DNA of 64,000 nt from a virus. Where the stretch lies: positions 32,001 through 96,000 of the IMG/VR virus record IMGVR_UViG_3300044797_000185; one strand, given 5' to 3'. The position numbers and the translations under genes are program-made. Numbering within the stretch: the stretch's first letter is position 1; each line of letters starts with the position of its first letter. Under the pieces are notes generated by a model. It did not search any database, had not been told where the DNA came from, and saw nothing but the letters and a program-made list of their open reading frames with translations. Below are positions 2,243 to 35,690 of the stretch, piece after piece.

Positions 2243-2839
2243 ATGGGTGATTCAACTGAATCTGGAGTCTATCAGATTCTTAATAAAGTTAATGGAAAAC
2301 GATATATTGGTTCTGCTGTTAATTTTATGAAACGTTGGTCTGATCATAGGACTCATTTGACTAAAAATATTCATCCAAATGATTACTTACAAAAATCAGT
2401 TAATAAGTATGGTCTTGATTCATTTAATTTTGAGATTGTTGAGAAAGTTACAGATCTTACACAATTGTTACAACGTGAACAATATTGGATGGATTATTAT
2501 AAGAGTTCTGATGATTTGTTTGGATATAATATTCGTTTAAATGCTCAAAATAATAAGGGACTTAAACATTCAGATGAGACTAAGCAAAAAATGAGATTAG
2601 CTCATCTCGGTAAAAAGCAATCTCTTGATCATATTAAAAATGCTGCTGATTCTCATAGAGGTAAAAAACGTACTGAAGAACAAGCTAAACGATGCGCTCG
2701 TACTTGGTCAGATGAACAAAGACAGCAACGTAGTGAACAACAAAAACAAATTTTTAAACGTGATGGTATGTCAGAAGAAACACGTCAAAAATGTAGAGAC
2801 GCTGCTTTAAAGCAGTGGGAATTAAAAAAACAAATCTAA
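2243..2839 (+). CDS. GIY-YIG homing endonuclease with NUMOD3 repeats
   Basis: GVYQILNKVNGKRYIGSA..RW..H motif; C-terminal KHSDETKQKM / RGKKRTEE / MSEETRQK repeats. Confidence 0.92.
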   Translation: MGDSTESGVYQILNKVNGKRYIGSAVNFMKRWSDHRTHLTKNIHPNDYLQKSVNKYGLDSFNFEIVEKVTDLTQLLQREQYWMDYYKSSDDLFGYNIRLNAQNNKGLKHSDETKQKMRLAHLGKKQSLDHIKNAADSHRGKKRTEEQAKRCARTWSDEQRQQRSEQQKQIFKRDGMSEETRQKCRDAALKQWELKKQI

Positions 2840-2911
2840 ACAGCGAGGTACACTACAATCGGAGACTCCTTTCAGATACTTCCTGATCAAAGTCAATTCG
2901 GTCCAGATTCT

Positions 2912-3421
2912 TTGGAATGGTATTTTATGTCCATTCGTGAGAAAGATAAATGGATTTTGAACATGAGTGGCGAACGCATTCTTCTTTATAAACGTCGCTA
3001 TGAAGGTCAACGTTGTCCTAAATTTGACACTGTTCGCCATACAAGTGCACAACATGAGGATACAATTTGTTATGGCACAGGATGGATTGCGCCTGATGCT
3101 AATATGACTGGAGATAATGCAGGTGGTCCTTACTATGGATTTTTTCAACCTATTGAAATTGTTGTGAGTTTGCTTTCAAGTGGACCAGAAGATTTAGCAC
3201 TTACAGATTACGGGCAACAACGAATTTTTAAACCTCATTCTTGGACACTCTATGAGCCACTTTTAACTCCTGGAGATATGCTTGTTCGTCGAAATAATGA
3301 AAGATTTCTTGTTACTGAAGTATTTCTCCGACGTTGGAAGCATTATGTTTTACACCAAGATTTTAATTTAGCTGAAGTGGAACGTGGAAGCATCCTTTAT
3401 CAATTACCTAGTGGGTTATAA
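2912..3421 (+). CDS. Putative neck / head-closure protein
   Basis: Position upstream of tail terminator and sheath; RCP...ICYGTGW motif. Frame is open from 2840, so the true start may be upstream (see findings). Confidence 0.5.
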   Translation: MEWYFMSIREKDKWILNMSGERILLYKRRYEGQRCPKFDTVRHTSAQHEDTICYGTGWIAPDANMTGDNAGGPYYGFFQPIEIVVSLLSSGPEDLALTDYGQQRIFKPHSWTLYEPLLTPGDMLVRRNNERFLVTEVFLRRWKHYVLHQDFNLAEVERGSILYQLPSGL

Positions 3422-3423
3422 AA

Positions 3424-4794
3424 ATGGCTAATGCTAATCCTTACTTAGTTTTAACTAGAGTACGAGATGCTGTCATTCTTGAACTTAGAGAAATCTTTGC
3501 CCCAAGGCATAATACAGCTGTAGTACCTGCCTTTGAATATAATTATATTGAAACATCTTCATCTGGGAACATTCAATTTTATGGTAATCCTTCAAATGGA
3601 AATACCGTTATAATTGGTGTAAATACAATTACGTTCGTAACTGGAACCCCATCAGGACTTCAAGTTAGAATTGGAGCAACGCAGCAAATTACTTTAGCAA
3701 ATTTAGTTGCTTTTATAAATGCAAATAGCAGTACTTTGCTGGTAACAGCCACTACAAATAGTGTTCCAAATATAGTTAATTTGATTGCAACAGCCCAAGG
3801 GGTTTCAGGAAATTTAATTACATTAGCTGTGAGTTCTACTGTGCTACGAGTTTCTTCCCCCACCCTTACTCAGGGGGGTTTGTTTGATTTTGATAATTCT
3901 GAAATTTTTATTTCTGATGCTATCCCTCAAGATTACCAGGATTGGCCATGCCTTATTGTTAATACTGCAATGGCAACTGAAACCCGATATCTTGGTCCAG
4001 AAGATAGCTTTGAAACAAAGAATAATTTTAACGTAGTAACACAATCAGAGATATTTTCTAGTTTAGTTGTGACTGTAACGATCACTCTTTACGTTATTGA
4101 CGATACACTTGCTCGTGATAAAATTATTGATTTAATTTATAATAATATGTCTGAAATACGACATCAACTCGCTTCAAATGGTATTGAAATGATTGACCGT
4201 ACAATGCCTACTGAAAATAGACAGTTTCAGGATCAGAGACAATATATTACTAATAATTTTATTTTACGAGTTTATTGTGAATGGAGTGATAACCAAGAAA
4301 TTACAAATATATCAAGTGTGTCTGTTTCTGTTCCTGTGACCCCAAATGCTGTTCCTATTATTAATAGCCCAATAAGTGCTTCCTATACTCATGGAATGCA
4401 ATTTGTTGTTGATAGTGTAGTTGATGCCACACATCTAACAGTAGAAAGTTCATTTGGTATGTCTTCTGGAAATACAATTACGCAAGGAACTCACACAACT
4501 ACAATCACTACAGTAGTAGATAATAATCATTTAACAGTAGGTTCCACAACAGGATGGATTCCTGGAAATGCTTCAAATACTTCAGTTAATTTACCCTTTT
4601 CATACATTATAACAGCTTCTGGTAATCCCACTTCCTATGGTGCTATTGGGTTGCCTTCAGGATTGACTGTGGATGCAGGTAATGGGCTTATTAGTGGAAT
4701 TCCTACTTCAGTCGGTAGTCCTTTTTATATTACTCTAAATGCTACGAATGCTACAGGTCAAGGAACACAGTCTTTGACTCTCACAGTTTCTTAA
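3424..4794 (+). CDS. Putative tail terminator/completion protein with inserted beta modules and C-terminal He_PIG-like Ig domain
   Basis: Directly upstream of sheath. C-terminus PFSYIITASGNPTSY...GLPSGLTVDAGNGLISGIPT...ITLNATNATG is the putative-Ig pattern; carries two DxTHLxV repeats. Confidence 0.55.
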   Translation: MANANPYLVLTRVRDAVILELREIFAPRHNTAVVPAFEYNYIETSSSGNIQFYGNPSNGNTVIIGVNTITFVTGTPSGLQVRIGATQQITLANLVAFINANSSTLLVTATTNSVPNIVNLIATAQGVSGNLITLAVSSTVLRVSSPTLTQGGLFDFDNSEIFISDAIPQDYQDWPCLIVNTAMATETRYLGPEDSFETKNNFNVVTQSEIFSSLVVTVTITLYVIDDTLARDKIIDLIYNNMSEIRHQLASNGIEMIDRTMPTENRQFQDQRQYITNNFILRVYCEWSDNQEITNISSVSVSVPVTPNAVPIINSPISASYTHGMQFVVDSVVDATHLTVESSFGMSSGNTITQGTHTTTITTVVDNNHLTVGSTTGWIPGNASNTSVNLPFSYIITASGNPTSYGAIGLPSGLTVDAGNGLISGIPTSVGSPFYITLNATNATGQGTQSLTLTVS

Positions 4795-4937
4795 GTAAAT
4801 AAGAATAAAGTAACCTAAAAAGTATAATAAAATCACGTAGTATTAGAGATACTGCTTTGCTTCGTAGAAAGATAGTTATTTACCAACAATTTTTGTAACC
4901 AAATAGATTTTAAATCTTTGTCAAGGAGATTCATCCA

Positions 4938-7436
4938 ATGCCTTCAATTAATAATCAGCCAGTTCTTCCAGGCGTATTTTCCCAGGTCCAACAGCAATTG
5001 CTTCCTTCTGTAACAGGTGGAATCAGAGTTGCTGCTTATATTGGAACTGGTCGTTTGACCAATTTAGTTGTTGGTGAAGCAGTCATTCGTGGTTCAGGAA
5101 ATCTTGATGCTCTCTTGCATCCAGCAGTTGCTCTTGATGGGACTTCAATTTCTGATGCCAACTTTGCAACTTATGAATTAGGTGTTGATTATTCTCTTAG
5201 TGGACCTTTTATTATTACTTCTGTTACTGATGGAACTCATTTGGTTGTTTCTTCAACAACAGGTATGTCTTCTGGAAATACAATTACGCAAGGAACTGCT
5301 TCTACAGATATCGTAACAGTTACTGATGGAACTCATTTGGTTGTTTCTTCAACAACAGGATTTGTTGCAGGTACTGCTTTAAATACTTCTATCGATGGAA
5401 TTAATTGGCTTACTGGTGCTATTTCCTTAACAGGAACAGCAAGTGATCCTTATGCAGGTCTTAGTGGAAAAACTTTCCAACTTTCAGTTGCAGGTGGACC
5501 AATTCAAACAGTTACTTTTTCAACAGAAACATCTGCTGATCAAGTTGTTGCTACTTTGAATGGTGCATTAACTGGGGCTGTCGCTTCTACTCCAGAAGTT
5601 CCAGTGCCAACTCTTGGTTCAGCATCTACTTATGCTGTTATCGCAAGTTCTACTATTACAAATACTGGTTCTACCACTCTCACAGGAAATGTTGCACTTA
5701 GTCCAGCAGGTTCTATCACAGGTTCCCCAACAGTTGTTGGAACAACTCATAATGGTGATGGTACAGCTGCGACAGCTTTAGCTGATGCTAACACAGCTTA
5801 TACTGCTTTTGCAGCTCTTCCAGGTGCAACTGATTTATCAGGAATGGTATTAGGAACAGGTGGAACAGTACCTACTCTTACTCCAGGCGTTTATAAATTT
5901 ACTTCTTCAGCACAGCTTACTGGTGCTTTAACACTCGATGCTGCTGGCAATCCAAATGCACAGTGGGTTTTCCAGATTGGTTCTACATTAACAACAGCAT
6001 CTGCTTCTTCAGTATTGTTAATTAATGGAGCTTCCGCTGGTAACATCTATTGGCAAGTTGGTAGCTCCGCTACCCTTGGAACAACAACAGCATTTAAAGG
6101 AACTATCATTGCTCAAGCAAGTGTAACAGATACTACAGGCGCAACAGTTCAGGGTCGCTTATTTGCCCTTACTGGAGCAGTAACATTAGACACAAATACA
6201 GTAACAGTTGTTCCAGGAACAACCCCAGGCGGTTCTTCAGTTACAATTACAACAACTGCTACATCTAATTCTTCTCTTACAATTGAAAATGGAACAGCAA
6301 ATAGTATTCTTGGTTTTACTGCTGGTTCATTAGTTTCTACTCCTTCTCGTCCAGTACTTGGCGTTACTTATTATGTCAATTATGAGTGGGCAAAGGCATT
6401 AAATGATGGACAGAGTAGCTTTCAACCTCAGTTTTTCTTCTTGCAGAATTTTAGTACAATTACAAATGCAATGGGAACTGTTGGTGGTGGCGATTCACAA
6501 ACTGCTAATATGTCAGGCGCATGGACTCTTCCAATTGCAGCACAACTCGCACAACAGAATGGTGCAAGCATTGTTTGTTTAATGCAGATGAATCCAGCAG
6601 ATGGCTCTAATGCATCGCAGGTTCGCGCAGCATTACAAAAGCTTTTCATTCCAAATATCAACATCGTTGTTTCACTCGATGCTGCTGATAATGCAATGCT
6701 AATTCCAGACATCACAAATCACGTTGAAACTGCTTCTAGCACGATTAACCGATTAGAGAGAACAGCATTCATTGGATTCTCCGCTCTTTCAAATCCTAGC
6801 GATGCAACAATGCTTGGATATGCAACCGCTGCTTCCAGTAATCGTGTAGTTGTAGTTAACCAGACCAATACAACATACACAATGTTTATTGGAACTAACC
6901 AAACAGCTTCTACGGTTGATGGAACAATGGCCGCAGCAGCACTTGCTGCCATTCGAACAGATCCCGCATTTGACGTTGCACAGCCATTAACACGCGAAGT
7001 ATTATCAGGTATTGCTACAACAAATACATTGGCACAATCTGAAAAAACAATCTTTGTTAATAATGGTGTATTAGTTATTGATAATGTATCTGGTTCACCA
7101 AAGGTATTGTTTGGAACTACAACAGAATTTGACACAATTCTTAACCAATTGTATCAAGTCACTGAAATTACAGATTATGTAGCACAAACATTGCGTGGAT
7201 TGCTCGATCCAATTTTCATTGGACAGAAATTGCTTACAAATACTCCTTCACAGGTTGAAACAGTTTCAGGTGCAATTCTTACAACGATTGAAGCTTCAAA
7301 CATCATTGAGTCATTTACACAGCCTTCCGCAACAGTAAATCCTCAACAGCCAACTCAGATTTTGCTTCAGGTAGGCATACAACCCGTCTTAGAACTGGAT
7401 ACCATCCTAATCACATTGGGATTGAACTTAGTATAA
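4938..7436 (+). CDS. Contractile tail sheath protein with inserted DUF3494-like domain
   Basis: N-terminal LPGVFSQV motif, sheath-like C-terminus (IQPVLELDTILITL), followed by tube gene; SD aaggag. DUF3494-like insert at about 5610-6207. Confidence 0.88.
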   Translation: MPSINNQPVLPGVFSQVQQQLLPSVTGGIRVAAYIGTGRLTNLVVGEAVIRGSGNLDALLHPAVALDGTSISDANFATYELGVDYSLSGPFIITSVTDGTHLVVSSTTGMSSGNTITQGTASTDIVTVTDGTHLVVSSTTGFVAGTALNTSIDGINWLTGAISLTGTASDPYAGLSGKTFQLSVAGGPIQTVTFSTETSADQVVATLNGALTGAVASTPEVPVPTLGSASTYAVIASSTITNTGSTTLTGNVALSPAGSITGSPTVVGTTHNGDGTAATALADANTAYTAFAALPGATDLSGMVLGTGGTVPTLTPGVYKFTSSAQLTGALTLDAAGNPNAQWVFQIGSTLTTASASSVLLINGASAGNIYWQVGSSATLGTTTAFKGTIIAQASVTDTTGATVQGRLFALTGAVTLDTNTVTVVPGTTPGGSSVTITTTATSNSSLTIENGTANSILGFTAGSLVSTPSRPVLGVTYYVNYEWAKALNDGQSSFQPQFFFLQNFSTITNAMGTVGGGDSQTANMSGAWTLPIAAQLAQQNGASIVCLMQMNPADGSNASQVRAALQKLFIPNINIVVSLDAADNAMLIPDITNHVETASSTINRLERTAFIGFSALSNPSDATMLGYATAASSNRVVVVNQTNTTYTMFIGTNQTASTVDGTMAAAALAAIRTDPAFDVAQPLTREVLSGIATTNTLAQSEKTIFVNNGVLVIDNVSGSPKVLFGTTTEFDTILNQLYQVTEITDYVAQTLRGLLDPIFIGQKLLTNTPSQVETVSGAILTTIEASNIIESFTQPSATVNPQQPTQILLQVGIQPVLELDTILITLGLNLV
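5610..6207 (+). other. DUF3494 (IBP-like) ice-binding-like domain, copy 1 (in sheath)
   Basis: LGSASTYAVIASSTITNTG..TLTGNVALSP..GVYKFTSSAQLTGALTLDAAGNPNAQWVFQIGSTLTTAS..IYWQVGSSATLGT..FKGTIIA..GRLFALTGAVTLDTN. Confidence 0.9.
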
Positions 7437-7486
7437 AATAGAAAAGAAAAAATTTAAAAAAAGATATTTCGTAAAGGAGAATCACG

Positions 7487-8017
7487 ATGGCCGAATTAGG
7501 GAATACGATTGCTCGACTTAGTACTAGCGTTTCACTTTTTGTACTTCCAAAAACTTTGGATGCTACCACATTAAATAACCCAGCAGCTCTTTTAGCTCTT
7601 GCACAACAGAGCACAAAGATTGGTGCTGTACAATCCTTTACCCAAACTCAAAGACGAAATACAGATTTTCGATTTGAATTGGATTCTGATTCTCAGGGAA
7701 AGCCAGTTGAAAGACTTCCTCGCACAGTTGATGAGTATTCTATTCGTGCTCAGCGCGTAATGCTTTACATTTCTGATGCTTTAGAAATCCTTGGTATTAG
7801 CGGTGATGATATTGTTAATAACAATGCCCCAATTGGTATTCTTAAGCAAGAAATTGCTCCAGCAGGTTCAGGCGTTCCTACAAAGAGCACAATCTTTACA
7901 GGAGTTTGGATTCACTCAGTTGGTGCAACGTATAATATTTCTGGTGGCGATTTGCGCGTAATGGAAGATGTCGATTTTGGTTATACAGGATCTACAGTAA
8001 TTGGTGAACCAGCCTAA
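7487..8017 (+). CDS. Tail tube protein
   Basis: 176 aa directly after sheath; IGAVQSFTQTQRR and MEDVDFGY patterns resemble myovirus tubes; SD aaggag. Confidence 0.75.
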   Translation: MAELGNTIARLSTSVSLFVLPKTLDATTLNNPAALLALAQQSTKIGAVQSFTQTQRRNTDFRFELDSDSQGKPVERLPRTVDEYSIRAQRVMLYISDALEILGISGDDIVNNNAPIGILKQEIAPAGSGVPTKSTIFTGVWIHSVGATYNISGGDLRVMEDVDFGYTGSTVIGEPA

Positions 8018-29243: not shown

Positions 29244-30020
29244 ATGATTTTTTTAAAAAATTCGGAGCATATAGAGTCAATTAAGAAAGCTGGAACAATC
29301 TTATCGGATTGTCTCAGCTTTTTGTCATTACAGGTCAAACCTGGAGTAACAGGTTTGCAGCTTGATAAGTTGGCTGAAGATTTTATTAGGGCTCAAGGAG
29401 GAATTCCTACTTGCCTTAATTATAGAGGTTTTCCCAATAGCGTTTGTATTTCTGTTAATTCAGGAGCTGTTCATTGTATTCCTAATAATAAAACTATTAA
29501 AGAAGGGGATGTTGTAAAATTGGATTTAGTAGTTAACTATAAAGGATGGAATGCTGATAGTGCACTCACAGTTCTTGTGCCCCCTGTCCAATCTGAGGTA
29601 AGAAAGCTTGCAGAAACGACTTACACAGCAATGCTATTGGGGGTAGGACAGGCGATTGAAGGAAATAGGGTCTCAGATATCTCTAAAGCTATTTATGAGG
29701 CTAGAAACGAATTTGGCGTAATTAAGGAGTTTTGTGGACATGGAATTGGACGAGATATTCATGAAGCTCCACAAATAAGTAATGTTTCTACTAAAAAAGA
29801 GAAGGATGATTTACTTGTAGCTGGCATGGTATTATGCATTGAGCCAATTATGTGTATTGGAGATCCTTCTATATTTTATGATCCTAAGCAATGGGATACC
29901 TGGGTATTATCAGGAAATATAGTTTCGCACTGGGAACATACCGTTTTAATTAAACCTAATGGAGAATTACCTGAAATTTTAACTTTGAGAAAGGAGGAAA
30001 AACAAAATGGCTGTTTATAA
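29244..30020 (+). CDS. map: Methionine aminopeptidase type I
   Basis: FPNSVCISVNSGAVHCIP, DVVKLD, ADSALT, FCGHGIGRDIHEAP, CIEP, HWEHTV. Confidence 0.96.
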   Translation: MIFLKNSEHIESIKKAGTILSDCLSFLSLQVKPGVTGLQLDKLAEDFIRAQGGIPTCLNYRGFPNSVCISVNSGAVHCIPNNKTIKEGDVVKLDLVVNYKGWNADSALTVLVPPVQSEVRKLAETTYTAMLLGVGQAIEGNRVSDISKAIYEARNEFGVIKEFCGHGIGRDIHEAPQISNVSTKKEKDDLLVAGMVLCIEPIMCIGDPSIFYDPKQWDTWVLSGNIVSHWEHTVLIKPNGELPEILTLRKEEKQNGCL

Positions 30021-31555: not shown

Positions 31556-32392
31556 ATGAAAATAGATTTTATGGAAATACCTTTAAAAAATAATAAAAAA
31601 GCAATTGTAGATGCAGAAGATTATCCACGTCTTATTAAATTTAGATGGTGGTTATTTAAAAATAACTGTATTGCTACAGGTATTGGTAGTAAAAAATTAA
31701 AAACAAGAAAAAATGTTCCTCTATCTCATATGGTATTGAATCTTGTTGGAGGATCAAAAAAAGATGTTTCTTACATTGATGGAAATTTCCTAAATAATAG
31801 AAAATCAAATTTAATTGTAAAAAGTTCTCGAACAAAGCTTATTGGAAAAAAATTTGGCAGATTATTGGTTATTTCATTTCATCATTATGATTCAAAATAT
31901 AGAGTTCTTCATTGGGAATGTAAATGTGATTGTGGAAATACAACAGTAGTTCCTACTACAAGTCTTCAACGTAAGGAAAGACCAAGTATCTCTTGTGGGT
32001 GTTGGAGATATGATAGAGTAACTGGTCAACCAGCTTCAAATAGATTACTTAAAGGAAGAGCAAATTTTAATTCATTATTTTATACTTATAAAAAAGCAGC
32101 AAGACAACGAGATATAGATTTTTTTCTTGTTAAAGAAGAATTTCAACAATTAACAAAAGATAATTGTTACTATTGTGATAGTAAACCTATACAAATCCAT
32201 GGGAAACAGGGTACATATGGAACGTATTTTTACAATGGCATAGATCGTTTGGATTCTAATAAGCCTTATGTATTGGGTAATTGTGTTCCATGTTGTAAAA
32301 CTTGTAATTATGCGAAAAGAGAAATGTCTGTTACAGAATTTAAGACTTGGATTACTCAAGTGTATAATTATTTTGGAAAGCGAGGAGAATAA
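31556..32392 (+). CDS. HNH homing endonuclease (degenerate N-terminal HNH_3-like plus C-terminal HNH)
   Basis: VSYIDGNFLNNRKSNL; WECKCDCG..SCGC; CYYC..NGIDRLDSNKPYVLGNCVPCCKTCNYAK. Confidence 0.85.
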   Translation: MKIDFMEIPLKNNKKAIVDAEDYPRLIKFRWWLFKNNCIATGIGSKKLKTRKNVPLSHMVLNLVGGSKKDVSYIDGNFLNNRKSNLIVKSSRTKLIGKKFGRLLVISFHHYDSKYRVLHWECKCDCGNTTVVPTTSLQRKERPSISCGCWRYDRVTGQPASNRLLKGRANFNSLFYTYKKAARQRDIDFFLVKEEFQQLTKDNCYYCDSKPIQIHGKQGTYGTYFYNGIDRLDSNKPYVLGNCVPCCKTCNYAKREMSVTEFKTWITQVYNYFGKRGE

Positions 32393-32610: not shown

Positions 32611-32699
32611 ACACCCTTAGCATAATGGTAGTGCAGCGAGTTTATACCTCGTAAGTCCTAGATTGGGGCGTGATGTAGGTTCGACTCCTACAGGGTGTA
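32611..32699 (+). tRNA. tRNA-Ile(UAU) with long variable arm; CCA not encoded
   Basis: Acceptor ACACCCT/AGGGTGT, D arm GCAT/GTGC, anticodon arm GCGAG-TTTATAC-CTCGT, 22-nt variable region, T arm GTAGG-TTCGACT-CCTAC. Confidence 0.82.
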
Positions 32700-32721
32700 C
32701 TAAGTTTCTTGAAAAATTAGT

Positions 32722-32824
32722 GCTGAGGTAGCTCAATGGTAGAGCAGTTGTTTTGTGAGCCTAAAATTGCGAGTGGGCTCATATAAACAACAGGTTGCAA
32801 GTTCGAGTCTTGTCCTCAGCTCCA
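32722..32824 (+). tRNA. tRNA-Thr(UGU) with 28-nt insertion in the anticodon loop; CCA encoded
   Basis: Acceptor GCTGAGG/CCTCAGC-T-CCA, D arm GCTC/GAGC, anticodon stem GTTGT/ACAAC, T arm GCAAG-TTCGAGT-CTTGT; removing 32757-32784 gives loop TT-TGT-AA. Confidence 0.8.
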
Positions 32825-35466: not shown

Positions 35467-35495
35467 TTGACAGATTGTTATTTACCTGCTATACT
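35467..35495 (+). promoter_or_regulatory. Sigma70-type promoter for tRNA-like ncRNA
   Basis: TTGACA-17-TATACT; predicted start site about 35501-35502. Confidence 0.85.
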
Positions 35496-35500
35496 TATTT

Positions 35501-35597
35501 TGAGGAGTCAATGTGGGTTCGAATCCCACTTTTGCCATTTGGCGAAATAGCTTAATTGGATACTGAAAAGGGAACCATAAGGCAAAGCAGCTCCTCA
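35501..35597 (+). ncRNA. Circularly permuted tRNA-like RNA (T arm, acceptor stem closed by a loop, D arm)
   Basis: TGAGGAG(35501-07)/CTCCTCA(35591-97) closing stem; GTGGG-TTCGAAT-CCCAC T arm; TTTTGCC-ATTT-GGCGAAA acceptor hairpin; TA; GCTT/AAGC D stem with AATTGG loop start. Confidence 0.8.
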
Positions 35598-35609
35598 CAA
35601 ATTTTGTTT

Positions 35610-35690
35610 CTCCTCTAGGTAGTTAGGATTAAGTTCTTAACATAGCGTTCAGGGAGAGGAGCTAACGTGGGTAGAGTGAACGTAGCCCAC
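35610..35690 (+). promoter_or_regulatory. Structured 5' leader / second RNA domain upstream of deacetylase gene
   Basis: CTCCTCT/AGAGGAG stem enclosing GTTAGGA/TCTTAAC hairpin, followed by GTGGG/CCCAC hairpin. Confidence 0.4.

Follow-up and report, generated by a model that had tools for sequence, protein, structure and literature searches.

Does a phage tRNA gene whose anticodon loop is interrupted by a small hairpin still yield a decoding tRNA, and by what route could such a hairpin be removed? In the current view, the tRNA genes of bacteria and their viruses contain self-splicing introns only, and protein-dependent tRNA splicing is regarded as an archaeal and eukaryotic trait. A hairpin of 28 nt cannot splice itself. 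The gene that raises this question lies in the window, i.e., the whole 64,000-nt stretch of DNA analysed here, which was taken from an IMG/VR virus record that is 117.8 kb long and has an estimated completeness of 61%. The phage belongs to an uncultured group with genomes of about 190 kb, and its helicase is only about 35% identical to the closest helicase of a cultured phage. The gene and its parts are as follows:

32722-32824, plus strand: tRNA-Thr(UGU) gene of 103 nt with a 28-nt insert and encoded CCA (Rfam, ARAGORN with introns allowed, orthologue L005 5496-5571)
32722-32755, plus strand: 5' exon in the register with a 2-nt stagger, the last base being anticodon base G35 (fold pairing, register analysis)
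32756-32783, plus strand: 28-nt hairpin insert in the same 2-nt-stagger register (28-column gap against five intact Thr(UGU) genes; fold)
32784-32824, plus strand: 3' exon, the first base being the U that would become U36 and the last bases CCA (fold, register, alignment)
32747-32791, plus strand: anticodon arm lengthened to a helix of 17 bp (one bulged U), the anticodon being base-paired (fold; match to L336 4347-4391)

The initial annotation had described an otherwise canonical tRNA with encoded CCA and Thr-type acceptor pairs at these coordinates, and both Rfam and ARAGORN bear this out. The tRNA family model RF00005 matches 32722-32821 over model positions 1-71 with 60.0 bits, well above its gathering score of 29 (E 1.7e-10), which places the gene in the tRNA family; the alignment leaves out 31 bases within the anticodon loop. 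ARAGORN overlooks the gene with default settings; once introns are permitted, it calls a gene of 103 nt that includes an insert of 28 nt and an encoded CCA. None of the 21 stem pairs is broken (7/7 in the acceptor stem, 4/4 in the D stem, 5/5 each in the anticodon and T stems), the D and T loops are conserved and the CCA is kept, so the gene shows neither the uncompensated stem mismatches nor the lost loop bases of a pseudogene. Such intact stems are compatible with a recent disruption.

The identity set of E. coli tRNA-Thr consists of G1-C72, C2-G71, G35 and U36, with G35 and U36 being needed by ThrRS. Both acceptor pairs are present in the phage tRNA, the discriminator being U, and removal of 28 nt leaves the same loop as in five intact Thr(UGU) genes. 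ACA is the commonest threonine codon of the phage and accounts for 43% of its Thr codons (36 per 1000 codons).

The minimum-energy fold of 32722-32824 is a cloverleaf in which 17 bp, interrupted by one bulged U, form the helix of the anticodon arm, closed by a 10-nt loop. The helix runs from the anticodon stem through the anticodon into the insert, burying the anticodon. The fold energy of the full 103-nt gene is -40.1 kcal/mol (z -4.25); for the arm 32747-32791 by itself it is -18.9 kcal/mol (z -4.41), a value matched by none of 200 shuffles. In the alignment with five uninterrupted tRNA-Thr(UGU) genes, a single 28-column gap sets the insert length at exactly 28 nt. Fold and alignment thus confirm the earlier proposal of a 28-nt hairpin that extends the anticodon stem and masks the anticodon. 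Placed at 32756-32783, the insert forms eight standard pairs and has three purine-purine oppositions; its tip is 4 nt long, and its 3' end overhangs by 2 nt. A 28-nt insert can be placed equally well at 32757-32784.

Further copies of the insert within the phage itself were not found, and a near match of 22 nt at G000:C1:15873 does not exceed chance expectation (E 2.5). The exact insert sequence gave 0 matches in IMG/VR, and a pattern for a tRNA with the insert likewise gave 0 matches. The 5' half of the tRNA, searched against IMG/VR and metagenomes, retrieved just the already known relative and unrelated sequences. No Rfam intron family matched the insert at E up to 1. A YrlA match (Rfam, 19.8 bits) overlapping 32681-32780 was dismissed as noise.

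The initial annotation had proposed a search of other phages for the same tRNA with and without the insert. Related phages were fetched with the helicase gene 540 bp downstream of the tRNA-Thr gene as an anchor. The insert-free comparison covers L005, L029/L031 and L006, together with L030, in which no tRNA is present at this site; beyond these, about 35 closer helicase relatives exist (70-82% identical). In L005, a complete phage of 192 kb (helicase 80% identical), an uninterrupted tRNA-Thr(UGU) at 5496-5571 (71.7 bits) occupies the same position and has the same flanking sequences as the gene under study. Intact, insert-free Thr(UGU) genes are also present in L029/L031 (helicase 76%) and L006 (44%), and L030 (79%) lacks a tRNA at the corresponding site. 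The form without the insert was thus found, syntenic in the case of L005, and the insert is absent from four related loci, which represent three other phages, two of the four being near-identical.

The anticodon loop is UU-UGU-AA in 5/5 intact Thr(UGU) genes aligned, including the L005 orthologue, and the insert-free form is therefore Thr(UGU). This loop settles as UGU the earlier ambiguity between UGU (Thr) and UAU (Ile); the Ile product is unlikely, since the orthologue reads UGU, and UGU is the only product in keeping with a Thr-type body as well as with a cut that has a 2-nt stagger. Besides the insert, the orthologues differ in one D-loop base and in three base pairs altered on both sides, one in the anticodon stem and two in the T stem; all stem pairs are intact in both genes. 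When the two sequences are compared, these double-sided changes cannot be assigned to the insert lineage and so give no proof of selection after the insertion.

Known classes of tRNA introns do not account for the insert. The group I ribozyme core measures at least about 200 nt and contains conserved paired regions. With 28 nt, the insert is an order of magnitude too short for this core and has no match to Rfam intron families; a group I intron is ruled out, as the initial annotation had argued from the length. In the archaeal bulge-helix-bulge motif, a 4-bp helix lies between two bulges of 3 nt each, which mark the splice sites. The helix found here is continuous with a single 1-nt bulge and lacks the two 3-nt bulges, which rules out an intron of this type. 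The splicing endonuclease (PF01974) was not found in the 118-kb record, which is 61% complete. RtcB, an Rnl2-type ligase, a TROVE/Ro domain and RNase III were likewise not found in this incomplete record, and RtcB is also absent from the related phages.

Two equivalent 28-nt deletions restore the loop of the orthologue. In the deletion of 32756-32783, the first base pairs with the third-last base, which leaves a 2-nt 3' overhang; two cuts in this register would thus be staggered by 2 nt, which is the signature of RNase III. The agreement with RNase III overhangs is one of geometry only, and the chance probability of the stagger fit alone is about 0.2. RNase III products carry a 3'-OH and a 5'-phosphate, i.e., the ends that ATP-dependent RNA ligases use. 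In the E. coli enzyme, 11 bp is the minimum between the cut and the loop, the loss of 1-2 of the 11 bp lowers reactivity 50-fold or more, and substrates have no G-C pair at positions 2 and 4 of the proximal box, the one at position 2 being inhibitory (PMC1540722). At both proposed cuts, 32755/32756 and 32783/32784, the adjoining pairs are A-U or U-A, as are positions 2 and 4 of the proximal box, the second-next pair is not G-C, and none of the E. coli antideterminants is present. Eleven stem steps, the number set as the E. coli minimum in base pairs, sum to 28 nt with the 4-nt tip and the 2-nt overhang. The fit to the E. coli rule is partial, as 8 of the 11 steps in the cut-to-loop helix are standard pairs and three are purine-purine.

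A ligase gene is encoded elsewhere in the record:

G000:C1:114373-115503, outside the window: T4 Rnl1-type RNA ligase, 376 aa

In T4, the Rnl1 family seals nicked anticodon loops. The Rnl1-type ligase is conserved in 4/4 related phage records, insert-free ones included, and therefore represents a permissive background and not a specific partner of the insert. A Pnkp-like kinase is encoded about 4 kb downstream of the ligase in three relatives; in the phage studied here, this position would lie past the end of the fragment. The Rnl1-type ligase together with the Pnkp-like kinase of the relatives is an anticodon-nick repair kit.

We tentatively favour the reading that the gene is a working orthologue of the phage tRNA-Thr(UGU) with a 28-nt protein-spliced hairpin mini-intron; a protein-spliced intron was among the options named in the initial annotation. 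The specific route by RNase III and Rnl1, in itself somewhat unlikely, takes the larger share of this confidence, and RNA-level removal by another protein route takes the rest. In the scheme that we infer, from transcription through both cuts and the cutting enzyme to ligation and any benefit, the precursor would fold as a normal cloverleaf with the anticodon hidden in the 17-bp arm. A double-strand endonuclease of the RNase III type, presumably that of the host, would cut both strands with a 2-nt stagger, at 32755/32756 after G35 and at 32783/32784 before the U becoming U36. The cuts would release the 28-nt hairpin with its 2-nt 3' overhang. The 3'-OH and the 5'-phosphate would be left, kept together by the tRNA body, and the phage Rnl1-type ligase would join the halves into a 75-nt tRNA-Thr with the loop UU-UGU-AA, reading ACA. 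We know of no RNase III-made ends that are religated.

The spliced mini-intron is favoured by the intact L005 orthologue with identical flanks and by the absence of any broken stem pair. It is further favoured by the stagger geometry, the A-U and U-A pairs at the cuts and the sum of 28 nt, as well as by the Rnl1-type ligase gene, the demand for ACA decoding, the recurrence of the design in two other phage contigs (L268 and L240) and the probable bacterial homologue L336. Against it stand the presence of the insert in this genome only, with four related loci free of it, and the distal stem of only 8 standard pairs, which by the E. coli rule would entail a loss of reactivity. Rnl1 is also present in the insert-free relatives, and the inserts of L156 and L140 occur without an Rnl1- or Rnl2-type ligase and misfit the 2-nt register. 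The insert lengths among the IMG/VR matches listed have no peak at 28, and the stagger fit by itself would arise by chance with a probability of about 0.2.

The recurrence of the design was examined by scanning IMG/VR for a common D-arm and T-arm with 17-47 or 26-30 extra bases between them. Among the matches listed, the insert lengths are broadly spread without a peak at 28, so that a sharp 28-nt size class did not hold up; the same matches include many tRNA-Tyr introns of the eukaryotic type, several of which lie on giant-virus contigs. Two more tRNA-Thr(UGU) genes with a hairpin directly after the anticodon were found among the matches listed, on unrelated phage contigs, namely L268 (c2448-2551, 28-nt hairpin, Rfam 56.1 bits) and L240 (2339-2441, 27-nt hairpin). 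Both possess G1-C72, C2-G71 and encoded CCA. In each of them, the sole register yielding the Thr loop has a 2-nt overhang. The hairpins of L268 and L240 are related to each other: two compensatory changes affect both sides of a pair, two further changes are one-sided, and 0 pairs are broken.

Introns of archaea made up most of the matches in a scan of prokaryotic genomes, which also brought up a tRNA from a Verrucomicrobiales MAG (L336; contig JAQGOU010000041.1, 4314-4416, minus strand; Rfam 54.4 bits). L336 carries a 28-nt insert with the same position and terminal motifs as the window insert. The arm 32747-32791 aligns with L336 4347-4391 without gaps and with 76% identity, and 97% of the cells of this alignment are paired versus 25-50% in slid controls. 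Two hairpin-internal pairs are changed on both sides between the two genes, and the loop is unrelated. By a rough count, chance alone would produce the shared length, site and termini in about 2 of every 100 screens of this kind. Judging from this alignment, the L336 insert is a probable homologue of the window insert. Look-alikes bearing an insert with covariation in the hairpin, which the initial annotation had named as worth seeking, were thus found both in L268/L240 and in L336 versus the window. Across 401 Verrucomicrobiota genomes, the terminal motifs of the insert gave matches at the level of the reversed control, and only the L336 gene lies in a tRNA.

The L336 tRNA has G3-U70 in its acceptor stem. 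Without the insert, its anticodon would read AAU, or UAU if the other register applied. It is flanked by four ORFs without Pfam matches on one side and by a short-chain dehydrogenase gene on the other.

Other hairpin inserts vary in their geometry and in the ligases that accompany them. L072, a complete phage with two Rnl1 genes, has a 34-nt hairpin insert that fits the 2-nt register, and the L240 fragment encodes an Rnl2-family ligase. The hairpin inserts of L140 and L226 have odd registers, and L156/L193 yield no canonical loop. Neither an Rnl1- nor an Rnl2-type ligase was found in L156 (complete phage) or L140 (provirus). A universal link between hairpin inserts and Rnl1 is ruled out, since these two carry inserts without such ligases.

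The surroundings of the gene bear on the question as well. Two features lie immediately upstream:

31556-32392, plus strand: free-standing gene for a homing endonuclease of the HNH type, upstream of the tRNA pair by about 330 bp (PHROG endonuclease VII / HNH, E 3.5e-17 and 1.8e-15)
32611-32700, plus strand: tRNA(UAU) with a long variable arm, forming a conserved gene pair with tRNA-Thr in the relatives (Rfam 60.7 bits; also in L005 and L029/L031)

The only homologue of the HNH gene among the relatives, 67% identical, is found at L030 2683-3237, where it occupies the site of the other relatives' tRNA cluster; the 107-kb record of L030 contains zero tRNAs. The HNH-free relatives keep intact tRNAs, and the HNH-bearing source phage is without the Met and Phe tRNAs of L005. 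From these gene contents, tRNAs are dispensable in the clade, which would thus tolerate a dead Thr gene. A large homing endonuclease gene also adjoins the L268 tRNA cluster that contains the insert-bearing gene. No recognisable endonuclease was found among the neighbours of L240, and none of twelve distant HNH relatives adjoins a tRNA. The T4 endonuclease SegB recognises a tRNA T-loop motif, and homing endonucleases act in phage tRNA clusters (PMC2330249). In collaborative homing, an insert at the endonuclease target can protect its carrier (PMC3984707). The context of HNH and tRNA loss fits a scar in a dispensable gene as well as a tolerated mini-intron travelling with the endonuclease.

Because of the adjacent HNH gene and the tRNA loss in relatives, a disrupted gene is a serious rival to the spliced mini-intron and the main one, even if we consider it somewhat unlikely. 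A lineage-specific hairpin insertion would have recently inactivated a dispensable tRNA-Thr, before further decay, possibly as a repair scar or a target-site disruption linked to the adjacent HNH endonuclease. Such a disruption is consistent with the four insert-free loci in three other phages and with the erosion of the tRNA cluster in the clade, as in L030, which has the HNH gene without tRNAs, and in the source phage without Met and Phe. It also agrees with the SegB precedent for homing endonucleases in phage tRNA clusters and with the insert having neither a second copy in the phage nor an exact copy in IMG/VR. However, all stems are intact and the CCA is retained, and the insert is a clean hairpin stacked on the anticodon stem in a register that permits exact removal. 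Furthermore, L336 shares its length, position and termini with covariation in the stem, and the Thr(UGU) genes of L268 and L240 share the design with covarying hairpins; random scars are not expected to converge in this way. An assembly or sequencing artefact in the metagenome contig is the least probable of all. The window does come from a single metagenome-derived record, but so exact a hairpin of 28 nt within the anticodon loop is untypical of assembly errors, and the same design is found in independent contigs from other samples.

Alternatively, the RNA might be a non-decoding, tRNA-shaped molecule, end-processed like a tRNA and never spliced, in which the body is a stable scaffold and the arm a decoy or sponge, e.g., for an anticodon nuclease or a dsRNA-binding protein, or in which the whole is a nuclease-resistant reserve. 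A storage form and a decoy had also been named in the initial annotation; we consider this reading distinctly improbable. The fully base-paired anticodon would be unusable by anticodon-loop nucleases and by the ribosome, the anticodon-nick repair ligase of the clade implies a conflict over tRNA cleavage, and a YrlA-like tRNA mimic is located 2.7 kb downstream; but the orthologue is an ordinary decoding tRNA, the hairpin loop differs between the window gene and L336, which argues against a specific binding site, and the geometry of exact removal would be an unexplained coincidence. An anticodon swap, in which the other register removes UGU and 25 further bases so that U-A-U of the insert becomes an anticodon reading AUA, is very improbable. 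This register likewise gives a 7-nt loop with U33 and A37, and U-A-U is conserved in the L336 insert. However, the body is of the Thr type, the orthologue reads UGU and a dedicated tRNA(UAU) is already present 20 bp upstream; the swap would have blunt or undefined ends in the fold and would deprive ThrRS of the G35 and U36 required by the E. coli tRNA-Thr identity rules.

Returning to the spliced mini-intron, its nearest precedent in the literature searched is the introns of the Lak megaphages, the tRNA introns of which were called 'enigmatic' (Devoto et al. 2019, PMC6784885). These are also inserts in anticodon loops of phage tRNAs, including Thr(TGT), are patchy among relatives, and lack an Rfam class or a known removal route. 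The same pattern of presence and absence is seen here, with the insert in the source phage and not in L005, L029/L031 or L006. The Lak introns differ in being 79 and 93 nt long (Table S6) and in some cases tRNA-shaped, whereas the window insert is a plain 28-nt hairpin from another phage lineage and lies outside this range of 79-93 nt.

The archaeal and eukaryal introns are similar in being short, in lying at or next to position 37/38 and in pairing with the anticodon, and protein removal with ligation is proposed here as well. They differ in that the window helix has no bulge-helix-bulge and the phage record no splicing endonuclease domain; furthermore, archaeal and eukaryal cleavage leaves a cyclic phosphate and a 5'-OH, whereas a 3'-OH and a 5'-phosphate are predicted here. 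The T4 nick repair, with the cut by PrrC, healing by Pnkp and sealing by Rnl1, involves the same ligase family and a tRNA broken in the anticodon loop as its substrate. In T4, the host tRNA is damaged at a single site; two programmed cuts that remove 28 nt and leave ends needing no healing are proposed here. The T7 R1.1 signal and the minimal uR1.1 (PMC1540722) resemble the insert in the hairpin helix, the geometry of the 2-nt 3' overhang, the A-U pairs at the cut and the length sum, and differ in that the window site lies inside a tRNA and has standard pairs at 8/11 steps. For bacteria or phages, the literature searched yielded no description of tRNA introns that are hairpins or depend on RNase III.

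Group I introns (PMC3984707) also interrupt the anticodon loop of bacterial-type tRNAs and can be associated with homing endonucleases. SegB of T4 and collaborative homing are comparable in having an HNH gene beside a tRNA pair, HNH-free genomes with intact tRNAs, and an endonuclease neighbour in L268; in contrast, the window insert is not a self-splicing intron, and L240 has no recognisable endonuclease neighbour. A broader proposal, which we regard as improbable, is that the hairpin is one of a recurrent, possibly mobile group of phage tRNA mini-introns, cut by RNase III, resealed by phage ATP-dependent RNA ligases, and persisting or spreading with homing endonucleases by target splitting. 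Such mini-introns would persist with free-standing homing endonucleases because the insert splits the endonuclease target in the tRNA gene. If true, they would represent a ribozyme-free counterpart of collaborative intron homing.

Removal of the hairpin by a dsRNA nuclease and a phage ligase would, if true, be a third and very simple route of tRNA splicing. Phage RNA ligases would gain a job beyond repair, and the locus would illustrate how a tRNA can accommodate any hairpin whose geometry is right. A tRNA gene with such an insert might become immune to a neighbouring homing endonuclease, and the tRNA might stay masked from anticodon nucleases until processing. If the gene is simply broken, the locus documents homing endonucleases eroding phage tRNA clusters.

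Several minor observations were made in the course of the scans. Among the IMG/VR matches listed (L062-L283), the anticodon loop is enlarged by 17-48 bases in dozens of viral tRNA genes. Insert families of 39-46 nt are common to several contigs among these matches, which also contain a conserved family of 26-27 nt non-hairpin inserts (L064, L124, L208, L221). L140 8560-8640 and L317 4296-4375 are nearly identical tRNA genes with a perfect 27-nt hairpin in the anticodon loop, the geometry of which misfits the 2-nt stagger; L317 is the complete chromosome of Pirellulaceae bacterium SH501, and L140 is a provirus record. L268 (IMGVR_UViG_3300035180_001563) contains seventeen tRNA genes in about 5 kb (2400-7700), among them two copies of the same 80-nt Thr(UGU) gene, each with a variable region enlarged by 10 bases, and another candidate tRNA of 102 nt with a 23-nt insert.

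Within the window, a YrlA-like element at 35490-35613 scores 29.3 bits in Rfam, below the gathering score of 69. The same element is present at L005 10840-10941 (31.2 bits), and no Ro/TROVE protein was found in the source phage. A methionine aminopeptidase gene is located at 29244-30020 (Peptidase_M24, E 5e-41), with relatives being 52-63% identical. The tRNA(UAU) at 32611-32700 has a 22-nt class-II-like variable arm, which is kept in L005, L029/L031 and Aeromonas phage 1233; the counterpart in the latter phage is 75% identical and unannotated there.
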